Of a DNA stretch of 64,000 bases, positions 38,321 to 43,244 are shown in pieces; within the stretch, counting starts at the first letter, position 1, and each line of letters begins with the position of its first letter. Origin of the DNA: Escherichia coli (lineage in GTDB: Bacteria; Pseudomonadota; Gammaproteobacteria; Enterobacterales; Enterobacteriaceae); NCBI RefSeq assembly GCF_046105845.1, contig NZ_CP151004.1; one strand, given 5' to 3'. The translations under genes and the position numbers were made by a program. The notes under the pieces are model-generated. The model ran no database searches, was not told the DNA's origin, and saw only the letters and a list, made by a program, of their open reading frames with translations.

Positions 38321-38480
<160 letters not shown>

Positions 38481-38504: not shown

Positions 38505-38867
38505 TTACTCGTCACTACCTTTATTCATGTTTTTTTGGTCTTCATCCGGATAATGTTTTTTTAGATATTCCAGGACGTTTTTATTGACCTTGTGTTGCGT
38601 ATACACCCACCCTTTCCAGTAATCAGGCTGGTCCAGGTAAACTTCTGGCGGAATGGTGAAATCAGAAAGCGTTAACCATTCGGCTAACAGATCGGGGTTT
38701 CGTTTCTGGATTAACTGCAACAGCATAATCAGTGACATAGCTGAGGCAGGAGCCGTACTATCACCACTCAAATATTTCCACACTGTTGACCGGTTCGAAC
38801 GAAAAAGGATCGGTAGCAATGCCCGGTCCAGATTCATTTCATTAAAAATCTTCTCAAATTCATTCAT
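38505..38867 (-). CDS. Hypothetical 120-aa protein, possible HTH-type regulator
   Basis: ORF with SD-like aggaaa 8 nt upstream of ATG at 38867; segment LLPILFRSNRSTVWKYLSGD resembles a helix-turn-helix. Divergent from the autotransporter gene across a 366-bp AT-rich region. I do not recognise the family. Confidence 0.45.
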   Translation of the reverse strand: MNEFEKIFNEMNLDRALLPILFRSNRSTVWKYLSGDSTAPASAMSLIMLLQLIQKRNPDLLAEWLTLSDFTIPPEVYLDQPDYWKGWVYTQHKVNKNVLEYLKKHYPDEDQKNMNKGSDE

Positions 38868-39233
38868 TTAAATTTTCCTGCCTGGCGTAAACCTCTTAAA
38901 AATTGAGATTTATCAAAGAAACGCATTTTAGCACACATCAGGAACCGCTTCACGTTTAGTTCAGAAACAGAATTTATTTCGCTTATCAAAACAAGTCTTT
39001 ACTCTTTTTTACATTGAAAGAGCACAAAATGATTTTCTATTTTATTTATATAAGAAACATTTTTTGTTTCTTATTGGTGGTGTTTACGCTTACACCAGAC
39101 AAAAATGCGCTTTACATCACACAAATGGCGGCGTAGATTTCGATCAAATTGCAACGCAGATTAATTCTTATAACAACGTTTTACGTTGCTTATAGAAACA
39201 AATATGTGACTTACTTTGAAAGAGAAAAAATGC

Positions 39234-42125
39234 ATGAAAACTGTAAAGCTGTCTTTACTGGCTGTCGTTGTTGCTACCGCGGTAAGTCCATCTGCGTTTG
39301 CGGGTGATACTGTTGAGGCGGCAACGACAGAATTAACGGCAATCCAGCCAGGAATGTCGCAATCGGAAATTGATCAGAAAATTGGTCGATTTTTAGAAAG
39401 GACAGGGAATAGTGCAGCCGCACAAAATTATCTGATTGCGCATGATTACCGGACAACGACACCTCAGGAAAATACAGCTGCCTCTCCCGTACAGCCCGCC
39501 AATACGCTGAACCCGATAACCAATCAAGCGCAGACCGACCGCGACAACGGGCAGGATACCGCCATTCAGGACGCACAACATGCCGCCAACTGGGCTTCAC
39601 TGAAAGCTGATGACGCGCAGCACGCCATCACGGTGGCGCAGACGGATATTGATGCCAATAAAGCCGCCATCGCCGACACCCGTAATGATGTCTCCGCAGT
39701 GCAGTCAGACGTCACCAACATAAAAGGCGATGTCGCACATGCCCAGTCAACGGCTGACCATGCCAACGCTAACGCCAACACCGCTCTGATGAACGGCGTC
39801 AAACTTTCCGGTGCTGTGGCAGAAAACAAAAACAATATCGAACAGAACCGCAGCGATATTGCTGACCAGCAGAAACTGTTGGCATCAAACGAGCAAAAAC
39901 AGATCGTCCGCGACAACGGGCAGGATACCGCCATTCAGGACGCGCAACATGCCGCCAACTGGGCTTCACTGAAAGCTGATGACGCGCAGCACGCCATCAC
40001 GGTGGCGCAGACGGATATTGATGCCAATAAAGCCGCCATCGCCGACACCCGTAATGATGTCTCCGCAGTGCAGTCAGACGTCACCAACATAAAAGGCGAT
40101 GTCGCACATGCCCAGTCAACGGCTGACCATGCCAACGCTAACGCCAACACCGCTCTGATGAACGGCGTCAAACTTTCCGGTGCTGTGGCAGAAAACAAAA
40201 ACAATATCGAACAGAACCGCAGCGATATTGCTGACCAGCAGAAACTGTTGGCATCAAACGAGCAAAAACAGATCGTCCGCGACAACGGGCAGGATACCGC
40301 CATTCAGGACGCGCAACATGCCGCCAACTGGGCTTCAATGAAAGCTGATGACGCGCAGCACGCCATTATGGTGGCGCAGACGGATATTGATGCCAATAAA
40401 GCCGCCATCGCCGACACCCGTAATGATGTCTCCGCAGTGCAGTCAGACGTCACCAACATAAAAGGCGATGTCGCACATGCCCAGTCAACGGCTGACCATG
40501 CCAACGCTAACGCCAACACCGCTCTGATGAACGGCGTCAAACTTTCCGGTGCTGTGACAGAAAACAAAAACAACATCGAACAGAACCGCAGCGATATTGC
40601 CGACCAGCAGAAACTGTTGGCATCAAACGAGCAAAAACAGATCGTCCGCGACAACGGGCAGGATACCGCCATTCAGGACGCACAACATGCCGCCAACTGG
40701 GCTTCAATGAAAGCTGATGACGCGCAGCACGCCATTATGGTGGCGCAGACGGATATTGATGCCAATAAAGCCGCCATCGCCGACACCCGTAATGATGTCT
40801 CCGCAGTGCAGTCAGACGTCACCAACATAAAAGGCGATGTCGCACATGCCCAGTCAACGGCTGACCATGCCAACGCTAACGCCAACACCGCTCTGATGAA
40901 CGGCGTCAAACTTTCCGGTGCTGTGACAGAAAACAAAAACAACATCGAACAGAACCGCAGCGATATTGCCGACCAGCAGAAACTGTTGGCATCAAACGAG
41001 CAAAAACAGATCGTCCGCGACAACGGGCAGGATACCGCCATTCAGGACGCACAACATGCCGCCAACTGGGCTTCAATGAAAGCTGATGACGCGCAGCACG
41101 CCATTATGGTGGCGCAGACGGATATTGATGCCAATAAAGCCGCCATCGCCGACACCCGTAATGATGTCTCCGCAGTGCAGTCAGACGTCACCAACATAAA
41201 AGGCGATGTCGCACATGCCCAGTCAACGGCTGACCATGCCAACGCTAACGCCAACACCGCTCTGATGAACGGCGTCAAACTTTCCGGTGCTGTGACAGAA
41301 AACAAAAATAATATCGAACAGAACCGCAGCGATATTGCTGACCAACAGCAACAACTCGACGAAACCCGGAAAACCGTTGCCGCCACCGGTGATGTACAGA
41401 CTGCCGCCCGATATCAGAGCATGATTGACGCCAGACAGACTGCTGCTGCCAATGCGCAACAGGAACAAGCGGACACCCAGCAGCAACAAATGGACGATCA
41501 GCAGAAACAAATCGACGCGACGCAAAAAACGGTTTCCGCACTTGGCGATGCCCAGACCAACGCACATTATCAAGAGATGGTTAACGCCGGACTGAGAGCA
41601 CAAAATGATGCGAATGCGCGTACTGCAGCAGAACAAAAACAAAAAATAGATACTCTGGCGACTAACCAGGCAACGCAACAGCATATCGATAGTGTGCAGT
41701 ACGGGGAACAAATTCAGCGTCTGGCGCAAGACTCAACACAAACGCATGAACAAATTGACAGCCTGACACAAGACGTAACCCAAACGCATCAGCAGTTAAG
41801 CAACACGCAAAAACGAGTAGCGGATAATAGCCAGCAGATTACTACGCTCAATAACCATTTCAGTTCGCTGAAAAACGAAGTTGAGGACAACCGTAAAGAA
41901 GCCAATGCGGGAACTGCATCAGCCATCGCTATCGCCTCACAACCACAGGTGAAAGCCGGTGACTTTATGATGATGTCAGCGGGAGCGGGAACCTTCAACG
42001 GTGAATCTGCGGTGTCTGTCGGAACATCTTTTAATGCCGGAACGCATACCGTGATTAAAGCCGGTGTCTCTGCGGATACGCAATCTGATTTCGGCGCGGG
42101 TGTCGGCGTGGGATATTCTTTCTAA
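39234..42125 (+). CDS. Trimeric autotransporter adhesin-like protein (type Vc) with coiled-coil repeat stalk and YadA-type anchor
   Basis: ORF 39216..42125; ATG at 39234 gives 963 aa. Sec signal peptide MKTVKLSLLAVVVATAVSPSAFA; long Q/A/N/D-rich helical repeat region; C-terminus EANAGTASAIAIASQPQVKAGDFMMMSAGAGTFNGESAVSVGTSFNAGTHTVIKAGVSADTQSDFGAGVGVGYSF fits the YadA-like anchor pattern (alternating small residues, glycine-rich beta strands, terminal aromatic). No recognisable YadA head motifs. Confidence 0.75.
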   Translation: MKTVKLSLLAVVVATAVSPSAFAGDTVEAATTELTAIQPGMSQSEIDQKIGRFLERTGNSAAAQNYLIAHDYRTTTPQENTAASPVQPANTLNPITNQAQTDRDNGQDTAIQDAQHAANWASLKADDAQHAITVAQTDIDANKAAIADTRNDVSAVQSDVTNIKGDVAHAQSTADHANANANTALMNGVKLSGAVAENKNNIEQNRSDIADQQKLLASNEQKQIVRDNGQDTAIQDAQHAANWASLKADDAQHAITVAQTDIDANKAAIADTRNDVSAVQSDVTNIKGDVAHAQSTADHANANANTALMNGVKLSGAVAENKNNIEQNRSDIADQQKLLASNEQKQIVRDNGQDTAIQDAQHAANWASMKADDAQHAIMVAQTDIDANKAAIADTRNDVSAVQSDVTNIKGDVAHAQSTADHANANANTALMNGVKLSGAVTENKNNIEQNRSDIADQQKLLASNEQKQIVRDNGQDTAIQDAQHAANWASMKADDAQHAIMVAQTDIDANKAAIADTRNDVSAVQSDVTNIKGDVAHAQSTADHANANANTALMNGVKLSGAVTENKNNIEQNRSDIADQQKLLASNEQKQIVRDNGQDTAIQDAQHAANWASMKADDAQHAIMVAQTDIDANKAAIADTRNDVSAVQSDVTNIKGDVAHAQSTADHANANANTALMNGVKLSGAVTENKNNIEQNRSDIADQQQQLDETRKTVAATGDVQTAARYQSMIDARQTAAANAQQEQADTQQQQMDDQQKQIDATQKTVSALGDAQTNAHYQEMVNAGLRAQNDANARTAAEQKQKIDTLATNQATQQHIDSVQYGEQIQRLAQDSTQTHEQIDSLTQDVTQTHQQLSNTQKRVADNSQQITTLNNHFSSLKNEVEDNRKEANAGTASAIAIASQPQVKAGDFMMMSAGAGTFNGESAVSVGTSFNAGTHTVIKAGVSADTQSDFGAGVGVGYSF
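39540..41343 (+). repeat. 4.9 tandem copies of a 369-bp (123-aa) near-identical in-frame repeat within the autotransporter gene
   Basis: cgcgacaacgggcaggatacc recurs at 39540, 39909, 40278, 40647 and 41016 (exact 369-bp period). Unit begins RDNGQDTAIQDAQHAANWAS... Copies 1-2 and copies 3-5 form two subtypes (LKADD/ITVAQ/AVAEN versus MKADD/IMVAQ/AVTEN). Confidence 0.92.
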
Positions 42126-42210
42126 TATTCCAATCCTCAATATAAATAAGAGCAAGGAAGCTTGCCGGGTTTCACCTCTTCATTAATTTGTACATTATTT
42201 AAGGTTAACA

Positions 42211-42633
42211 ATGATGAATAGTTCCATTAAATCGTTTTCCCTGCTGGCGGTTATATTACTGGCTGGCTGTAGTTCACCCACTTCCCGCATCGCAGATTGC
42301 CAGGCGCAGGGCGTCAGCCATGACACCTGTTATCTCGCAGAACAACAGCGTCAGACGGCTATTTTAAGTGCATCCGAGGCGCAGGCATTTAAAAATGCAG
42401 AAGCCGCACAACATGCCCAGGCGGCAAAGAAAGCCATTTATAAAGGATTTGGCATGACCTTTAGAATGAGCAGTAAGAACTTTGCTTATCTCAATGATTC
42501 ATTATGTGCAATTGATGAAGACAATAAAGATGCCACTGTTTATCAGTCAGGTCTTTATAACGTCATTGTTTATCACCACACGGGAAAAGTCGCCTTAATG
42601 AAGGAAGGTCAGTTTGTGGGTTATTTAAAATGA
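42211..42633 (+). CDS. Putative lipoprotein (140 aa)
   Basis: Signal peptide with lipobox LLAGC, Ser at +2; 85 bp downstream of and co-directional with the autotransporter gene. Confidence 0.6.
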   Translation: MMNSSIKSFSLLAVILLAGCSSPTSRIADCQAQGVSHDTCYLAEQQRQTAILSASEAQAFKNAEAAQHAQAAKKAIYKGFGMTFRMSSKNFAYLNDSLCAIDEDNKDATVYQSGLYNVIVYHHTGKVALMKEGQFVGYLK

Positions 42634-42833
42634 AGGAGCAAAGGAAAATCCCCCTGACGCATATTATGATTATCGGTGCGTTTATTTTTGCCTTCTTGCA
42701 AGTGGTGTTATTAGCCTCCCTGGTTCACGCTGTGAATGTTAACAATGAAATCCAGGAAGGCTTATTTCAATCGGGGCGCATAATGGTAGAAAGTTTGCAG
42801 CATATTCTTTCGGTGCAAACGGGGATTAACTGA
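42630..42833 (+). CDS. Putative small single-pass membrane protein (67 aa)
   Basis: Start overlaps the lipoprotein stop (ATGA); hydrophobic segment IMIIGAFIFAFLQVVLLASLV; stop lies 3 bp from the convergent cueR stop. Confidence 0.4.
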   Translation: MKEQRKIPLTHIMIIGAFIFAFLQVVLLASLVHAVNVNNEIQEGLFQSGRIMVESLQHILSVQTGIN

Positions 42834-42836
42834 TTT

Positions 42837-43244
42837 TCACCCCGCCCGATGATGACAGCAGCCGGAGAGATTTTCGATAATCGGGCAGTCGGCGCTGTCA
42901 TCGCCAGGGCAGGCATTCGCCAGCGCCAACAGCTGGTTGCGCATGGATTGCAGTTCTTCGATATGTCGCTCGATCTCCGCCACTTTCTCCAGGGTGCGAC
43001 GTTTGACGTCGGCACTGTGACGCTGCGGATCGTTAAACAGATTCACCAGCTCGCCGCTCTCTTCCAGGTTAAAGCCCACCTGGCGTGCCTGGCGCAGTAA
43101 GGTCAGTTCGTTGAGATGCTGCTGCGTGTAAGTACGATAACCGTTTTCGCTGCGCATCGGCGGCGTCACCAGCCCCTTCTCTTCATAGAAGCGGATTGCT
43201 TTGCTGGTCAGGCCGGTAATTTTTGCTACATCGCTAATGTTCAT
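42837..43244 (-). CDS. cueR: MerR-family copper-responsive regulator
   Basis: 135-aa [32 protein letters not shown]... with C-terminal metal-binding CPGDDSADC...CCHH; recognised CueR. Confidence 0.95.

Follow-up and report, generated by a model that had tools for sequence, protein, structure and literature searches.

An adhesin, a lipoprotein and a small membrane protein in O-island 29

In a 64,000-nucleotide stretch of Escherichia coli DNA (contig NZ_CP151004.1; hereafter, the window), a gene for a trimeric autotransporter adhesin (TAA) is followed on the same strand by two small open reading frames (ORFs) that encode a 140-amino-acid (aa) lipoprotein and a 67-aa membrane protein. An earlier note on this DNA, made from the sequence alone, described the lipobox-containing lipoprotein and the overlapping membrane protein ORF behind the autotransporter gene, and all the coordinates and features it gave hold. 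The TAA gene (39234-42125, + strand) codes for a signal peptide, a coiled-coil passenger and a C-terminal YadA anchor; the mechanically delimited ORF (39216-42125) starts at TTG 39216, but ATG 39234 is the likely true start. An 85-bp spacer (42126-42210, +), with an AAGG Shine-Dalgarno ribosome-binding site at 42200-42203, 8-11 nt 5' of the ATG, leads to the lipoprotein gene (42211-42633, +), in which the signal peptide and the lipobox take up positions 42211-42270. The ORF for the 67-aa single-pass membrane protein (42630-42833, +; transmembrane segment, 42660-42728) begins within the lipoprotein gene, its ATG overlapping the TGA by 4 bp (ATGA), and its stop codon is separated by 3 bp (42834-42836) from that of the convergent cueR gene (42837-43244, - strand).

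Homology to E. coli K-12 breaks off within the final codons of ybbJ (~38316) and starts again precisely at the stop codon of cueR (42837). The inserted segment of 4.5 kb is O-island 29 (OI-29) of enterohaemorrhagic E. coli O157:H7, placed exactly at the K-12 junction of the ybbJ and cueR stop codons; the 3-bp spacer forms its right-hand edge, and cueR is core-genome sequence outside the island. Gene identities within OI-29 were fixed by mapping the deletion-primer arms of Yang et al. 2018 onto an O157 genome and the window. The z0638 arms map immediately beside the lipoprotein ORF, with 0 mismatches in O157 and 0-1 in the window, and the DNA of the two is 96.8% identical over both small ORFs. 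The lipoprotein gene is thus already catalogued as z0638; by the same mapping, z0639 (‘gmrA’) is the gene named “YadA family autotransporter adhesin” by RefSeq, and z0640 is a 120-aa ORF. The original study treated z0638 as a hypothetical protein (Yang et al. 2018, Front Microbiol 9:338; PMC5826968) and is silent on its lipobox, on the 67-aa ORF and on z0639 being a YadA-type autotransporter.

The z0639 product in the window is a 969-aa protein in which Pfam detects YadA_anchor at residues 910-969 (E 8e-11), but no YadA head or stalk domains, and the anchor matches the membrane domains of AtaA and Hia. The passenger region contains a tandem repeat (39531-41352, +) with a period of 369 bp (123 aa), 4.9 copies and 98% matches, and because of this repeat, the allele is 969 aa long here compared to 338 aa (O157, strain 06-00048), the two ends of the size range observed. 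Within E. coli, the TAA gene is more divergent in its 3' part (mostly 80-95% identity among genomes) than the lipoprotein gene (mostly 95-99%).

Among 5426 complete E. coli genomes, the TAA anchor was found in 1412, the lipoprotein gene together with the small ORF in 1416, and z0640 in 1415. OI-29 is all-or-none in E. coli, and its carriers include O157:H7, O55:H7, O145:H28, E2348/69, 042 and extraintestinal pathogenic lineages.

Both small ORFs are genuine genes under purifying selection. In the comparison with Escherichia whittamii, the ratio of nonsynonymous to synonymous substitution rates (dN/dS) amounts to 0.04 for the lipoprotein gene and 0.13 for the small ORF; the latter still gives 0.19 when compared with a Pseudocitrobacter-type locus of 42% identity. 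All three lineages that have the small ORF retain the ATGA overlap, down to 36-42% identity. That one or both ORFs are chance reading frames or non-functional remnants might be argued from the absence of any family annotation for either of them, from the lack of a strong Shine-Dalgarno sequence proper to the small ORF, and from the unrelated ORFs that fill the third gene position in other clades. Given the selection on both ORFs and the preserved overlap, we consider this highly improbable; furthermore, ~1413 E. coli genomes carry the segment, with a DNA identity of 90-100%, RefSeq annotation in E. coli includes both ORFs, as do nearly all records among the matches listed, and z0638 transcripts have been detected.

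The last point also bears on the earlier note, which named a lack of transcription or translation of these ORFs as a refutation; transcripts of the lipoprotein gene were detected by both RNA-seq and quantitative reverse transcription PCR (qRT-PCR) in O157:H7. In Dulbecco's modified Eagle medium, z0638, z0639 and z0640 reach 20.4, 96.1 and 43.5 reads per kilobase per million (RPKM), respectively, and all three fall to 0 RPKM in cells attached to HeLa cells (PMC5826968 Table S3). The qRT-PCR changes upon attachment are -10.6-fold (z0638), -8.5-fold (z0639) and -5.2-fold (z0640) (PMC5826968). These values indicate that the lipoprotein gene is transcribed and co-regulated with the TAA gene.

The lipoprotein family and known TAA helpers

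The z0638 protein starts with MMNSSIKSFSLLAVILLAG, followed by the lipobox cysteine, Cys20 (codon 42268-42270), and displays the features by which lipoprotein signals are recognised, namely, a positively charged n-region, a hydrophobic h-region and a lipobox of the form [LVI][ASTVI][GAS]C. This cysteine is invariant in 21 of the 21 aligned homologues, a lipobox is encoded in essentially all loci, and the protein is predicted to be a substrate of signal peptidase II, lipidated at Cys20. The residues after the cysteine are Ser-Ser-Pro, so that serine occupies position +2, and Asp is found at this position in none of ~60 homologues. In E. coli, lipoproteins without Asp at +2 are sorted to the outer membrane, and by this rule, the z0638 protein should reach the outer membrane.

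The mature protein consists of a helical N-module with two cysteines, Cys30 and Cys40 (~42271-42396, +), a linker, and an all-beta C-terminal domain (~42433-42630, +). The Cys30/Cys40 pair, which lies within the motif CQAQG-S-DTCYLAEQNRQ of the homologue alignment, is at least 90% conserved, as would befit a periplasmic protein. The linker is variable in length and the C-terminal domain is conserved. In the AlphaFold2 model, the N-terminal part is a helical hairpin plus a long helix, at modest confidence, and residues 75-140 form an eight-stranded all-beta domain with a predicted local distance difference test (pLDDT) score above 90.

The family is small: only 152 relatives were found among 1.84 billion representative proteins, and those that could be placed taxonomically are nearly all from Enterobacterales. 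No Pfam match to the lipoprotein was obtained even at E<=10, and for both small proteins, nothing above threshold was found in Pfam, NCBIfam, PHROGs or PADLOC. Searches of the PDB with the sequence and with family profiles (E<=10) yielded no relevant relative of the lipoprotein, and Foldseek against AFDB50 retrieved only uncharacterised enterobacterial “lipoprotein” entries. Literature searches with the RefSeq protein accessions, the 042 locus tags, and ybbJ combined with trimeric autotransporter found nothing. As far as the searched literature shows, the TAA-linked lipoprotein family, with the architecture predicted here, appears to be undescribed.

Several candidate relationships were considered and rejected. 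The signal peptide accounts for the weak matches to TraV, XAC1346, Cor and TrbK, and a search of the literature on XAC1346 yielded nothing. The TraV match (TIGR02747) reaches 19.5 bits against a curated cut-off of 44.75 and covers only the signal peptide and the Cys-pair region; conjugation context is missing, and the lipoprotein family is rare on plasmids. A phage spanin or exclusion-lipoprotein pair finds no match in PHROGs or PADLOC, nor by tblastn in 50,697 phage records. Among a few large proteins with repeated profile matches, the two inspected, P0158 and P0182, contain Cys-rich repeats with no more than a short motif in common and were therefore judged non-homologous.

The N-module (CSSPAQRMADCQAQGISKDTCYLAEQNRQ) also occurs alone, as a highly conserved lipoprotein of 63-69 aa, in Aeromonas, Pseudomonas, Buttiauxella and Atlantibacter (loci L035, L039-L042, L044-L052, L059 and L060), and longer forms are found in the alphaproteobacteria Skermanella and Falsiroseomonas. 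These stand-alone N-module lipoproteins carry no family annotation.

To our knowledge, SadB and TpgA are the only TAA-specific accessory proteins. The one systematic survey for TAA helpers, a recent one, found no further ones (bioRxiv 10.64898/2026.01.22.700529), but it required a YadA head domain, which the TAA of the window lacks, so that the lipoprotein family described here lay outside its reach. The earlier note had compared the small proteins with SadB, the helper of the Salmonella TAA SadA, and had proposed homology and structure searches for the lipoprotein. Whether the query was the lipoprotein sequence itself or the family profile (E<=10), these searches gave no PDB match to SadB (4C47), YajI (2JWY), TpgA or BamE.

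The resemblance to SadB is a general one: both are enterobacterial periplasmic lipoproteins encoded beside a TAA gene, presumably co-transcribed with it, and both have a helical part followed by a beta domain. It could be taken to mean that the z0638 protein belongs to the SadB/YajI family, though much diverged, and, like SadB, forms a trimer in the inner membrane that pre-organises three TAA chains. The defining features of SadB, however, point elsewhere. SadB resides in the inner membrane and has Asp at +2, its gene lies upstream of sadA, and its ~210 residues comprise a trimeric coiled coil together with a MATH-like domain that shares homology with YajI (PMC3953254); the z0638 protein carries Ser at this position, its gene follows that of the TAA, and the protein shows neither this length nor these domains, its beta domain comprising ~65 residues compared to ~120 in SadB. 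Sequence and profile matches are absent, and hhalign of the family alignment with E. coli YajI returned a probability of 0.5%, with only the lipobox aligned. Membership in the SadB/YajI family, already contradicted on these testable features, is hardly credible, and the analogy should rather be drawn with TpgA-like partners at the outer membrane.

The gene order and predicted location of the z0638 protein would be closer to those of TpgA, the partner of AtaA in Acinetobacter sp. Tol 5, than to those of the inner-membrane SadB/SadA pair. Like z0638, 85 bp behind the TAA gene in the window, the tpgA gene directly follows the gene of its adhesin. TpgA binds the periplasmic face of the AtaA anchor in a 3:3 complex (PMC12523085), whereas for the z0638 protein an anchor interaction is only conjectured. 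The domains of TpgA, a BamE-like alpha-alpha-beta-beta-beta N-domain and a peptidoglycan-binding OmpA_C domain, are not detectable in the z0638 protein: neither SmpA/OmlA nor OmpA_C is matched in Pfam at E<=10, there is no PDB profile match, and the predicted fold is all-beta.

Linkage of the lipoprotein to trimeric autotransporters

We surveyed one genome per species, together with the contigs encoding distant homologues, for YadA anchors near the lipoprotein gene, using two anchor profiles. Two-domain homologues are encoded in 22 species loci, and in 13 of these, the lipoprotein gene is preceded on the same strand by a YadA-anchor gene whose end lies no more than ~330 bp away (gaps of 47-327 bp). 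A fourteenth TAA-linked locus, in Lelliottia, encodes a variant C-domain, and in Pantoea conspicua, the TAA lies 1.9 kb from the lipoprotein gene. The linked loci come from Escherichia, Pseudocitrobacter, Enterobacter, Phytobacter, Rahnella, Yersinia, Ewingella and Lelliottia and occupy at least four chromosomal sites (ybbJ/cueR, fetA/qmcA, beside thiM/thiD, and beside a recombinase gene). They involve two YadA-anchor subtypes, the TAA-linked members are scattered over the lipoprotein family tree, and in all linked loci, the lipoprotein gene is located downstream of the TAA gene.

Because this order is kept across genera, chromosomal sites and anchor subtypes, the best reading appears to be that the lipoprotein is a dedicated periplasmic partner of the neighbouring TAA. 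The OI-29 cassette comprises, in order, z0640, a divergent gene for a helix-turn-helix (HTH) protein, z0639, for a short coiled-coil TAA, z0638, for the lipoprotein, and the gene for the 67-aa membrane protein. The last three most likely form one transcription unit that starts in the AT-rich region upstream of the TAA gene, with z0638 and the 67-aa ORF probably coupled in translation. Promoter-like sites were found 5' of the TAA gene and none in the 85-bp spacer, for which folding compared to shuffled sequences gave a z-score of +0.65; a terminator scan found no terminator between the TAA and lipoprotein genes. The lipoprotein would be exported, lipidated at Cys20 and, with Ser at +2, inserted via the Lol pathway into the outer membrane on its inner leaflet, with the disulfide-capable helical N-module and the small beta C-domain facing the periplasm. 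There, it may bind or stabilise the anchor or a translocation intermediate of the TAA, the 67-aa inner-membrane protein probably being a lineage-specific add-on. We infer the operon, the outer-membrane location and the physical or functional interaction with the TAA, and hold the partner reading as a whole tentatively, a little short of an even chance.

Several observations weigh against it. In nine of the 22 species loci, and in three further loci from metagenomes, no TAA adjoins the lipoprotein gene, so the family can function without one. The 63-69 aa N-module lipoproteins of Aeromonas, Pseudomonas and Buttiauxella likewise have no TAA nearby. The linked loci cannot be counted as independent events because a single inherited cassette may account for much of the linkage. 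Neither in sequence nor in fold does the z0638 protein match a proven TAA helper. Finally, deletion of OI-29 left adherence to HeLa and Caco-2 cells unchanged, and deletion of z0638 had no motility phenotype (PMC5826968).

The unlinked loci are also the basis of the main rival, in which the lipoprotein is an independent envelope protein, acting, for example, in stress protection or in enzyme inhibition after the manner of MliC/PliC, and travels with the TAA as genomic baggage. Members without a TAA in Klebsiella grimontii, Pantoea, Pluralibacter, Erwinia and Enterobacter are compatible with such independence, as is the occurrence of the N-module and the C-module each on its own. The specific likeness to the small beta-barrel periplasmic lysozyme inhibitors MliC, PliC and ACP amounts to ~9% identity, with no match to the family hidden Markov models, and unlike the z0638 family, these inhibitors are not linked to autotransporters. 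Mere baggage, however, would hardly be expected to keep a tight, same-strand position with short gaps through relocation to several sites and a change of anchor subtype, to be present or absent together with the TAA throughout E. coli, and to share its regulation. We consider the independent role unlikely, but still a rival to be reckoned with.

Thus, of the earlier proposal that the small genes assist autotransporter biogenesis, the general idea is favoured by the conserved order across genera, sites and anchor subtypes and by the all-or-none distribution in E. coli, and the SadB model falls.

Several other arrangements were seen among the surveyed loci. In some TAA-less loci, the lipoprotein gene is followed by a gene for a secreted protein with a coiled-coil N-terminus and a His/Gly-rich, repetitive C-terminus (...GGSVHGSxDNNGNQNEHDH...; L009 6079-6714, L016 8944-10656, L032 8402-9037), possibly another kind of fibrous client. 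In Pseudocitrobacter faecalis (L003 3801-7532), two tandem YadA-anchor genes precede the lipoprotein and small-ORF pair, and the block adjoins a serine recombinase gene. A contig labelled Chryseobacterium sp. 18061 (L020) contains a copy of an Enterobacter-like lipoprotein locus, which is probably assembly contamination.

The small membrane protein, z0640 and the cueR junction

The 67-aa protein has a single hydrophobic segment (residues 11-33; maximal 19-residue Kyte-Doolittle mean, 2.65) and a tail of ~34 residues. Because Lys and Arg lie on the N-terminal side of the segment, the predicted topology is N-in, C-out, which would place the conserved motif HA(V/I)NxNxE...QS in the periplasm. Homologues were found only in Escherichia, Shigella and Pseudocitrobacter-type loci. 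In Rahnella, Serratia silvae and an Enterobacterales metagenome-assembled genome, the lipoprotein gene is followed by an unrelated, conserved ORF for a soluble protein of 70-81 aa (MKKxHTDQFKHLPPEQQ...; L017 8408-8653, L021 8408-8650, L022 8408-8629, L026 8492-8707, L028 1317-1529), for which no signal peptide or family match was found. In four of these five loci, this ORF, too, has a 4-bp overlap with the lipoprotein stop codon; in Serratia silvae, it starts 5 bp downstream. Pantoea conspicua has yet another type of ORF in the third position, with a C-terminal membrane segment, and in Enterobacter, there is none. Being lineage-specific and replaced elsewhere by unrelated overlapping ORFs, the 67-aa protein is unlikely to be a core part of the lipoprotein's function; the role of co-helper that the earlier note tentatively proposed for it thus seems doubtful, the gene itself being genuine.

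The z0640 orthologue (38505-38867, - strand), the first gene of the cassette, diverges from the TAA gene and encodes a 120-aa XRE/Cro-like HTH protein with the motif L-ILG-NRSTL-KW-NG. Its AlphaFold2 model (pLDDT 86) retrieves HigA2, the P2 C repressor, Aca2, C-proteins and lambda cI as the best Foldseek matches, all with weak E-values, and the only Pfam match is to MqsA_antitoxin (E 0.12). A z0640-type gene is found upstream of, and divergent from, the cassette genes in seven genera (Escherichia, Pseudocitrobacter, Rahnella, Ewingella, Yersinia, Serratia and Symbiopectobacterium); it is kept in most TAA-linked loci and persists despite the loss of the TAA in Serratia silvae and Symbiopectobacterium.

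The company of this HTH gene, together with the report that OI-29 is switched off upon host-cell attachment and influences flagellar gene expression (PMC5826968), brings up another possibility, namely, that the lipoprotein and the 67-aa protein form an envelope-sensing or signalling pair that reports on the adhesin or on surface contact to z0640 or to the flagellar regulon. The cytoplasmic part of the 67-aa protein, however, comprises only ~10 residues, the protein is absent from most cassettes, and z0640 has no membrane or sensor domain. The outer-membrane lipoproteins NlpE and RcsF are surface-contact sensors, and a sensory role would have precedent in them. Against this, deletion of z0638 or z0640 left motility and the expression of fliC and motA unchanged (PMC5826968). 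Altogether, a sensory pair strikes us as quite improbable, well behind a role of the lipoprotein as a TAA partner.

At the far end of the cassette, the small ORF stop lies 3 bp from that of cueR, as the earlier note observed, and the terminator scan found none at this junction. As the sole candidate in the region, the minus (cueR) strand has a weak hairpin of 7 bp, with UUUCU after it, within the 3' end of the small ORF, and neither the 85-bp spacer nor the stretch at the cueR junction folds in a terminator-like manner better than shuffled sequences. The spacing and the lack of a good terminator thus stand, and the converging transcripts inferred from them are nothing peculiar to this locus: in K-12, the stop codons of cueR and the convergent ybbJ directly adjoin each other (0 bp), so that convergent read-through would be a standing property of the cueR 3' end rather than one created by the island genes. 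At its other end, the cueR start codon overlaps the stop codon of an HlyD-family type I secretion gene by 4 bp (43241-43244, - strand), which gives cueR in this strain the appearance of being the final gene, coupled in translation, of the SiiEA/BapA-like giant-adhesin type I secretion system cluster; in K-12, cueR comes after ybaT, with a gap of ~124 bp. At the left island edge, just after ybbJ, there is a REP/BIME element (repetitive extragenic palindrome/bacterial interspersed mosaic element; 38370-38447) that matches Rfam naRNA4 (RF02564, 71.9 bits), the sole match of the Rfam scan, which found no RNA element in the stretch of the two small genes.

These findings suggest that OI-29 needs a second look. 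The gmrA (z0639) product has a Sec signal peptide and a YadA membrane anchor, with which a role of GmrA as a cytoplasmic DNA-binding activator is hard to reconcile; the actual helix-turn-helix candidate of the island is z0640. The z0638 family, unrelated to SadB by all comparisons made here, is a candidate new adhesin partner. If this is true, TAAs that lack a head domain would be accompanied by a conserved partner lipoprotein in roughly one in four complete E. coli genomes, which would broaden current ideas of type Vc secretion and offer a tractable E. coli model of a TAA accessory protein.
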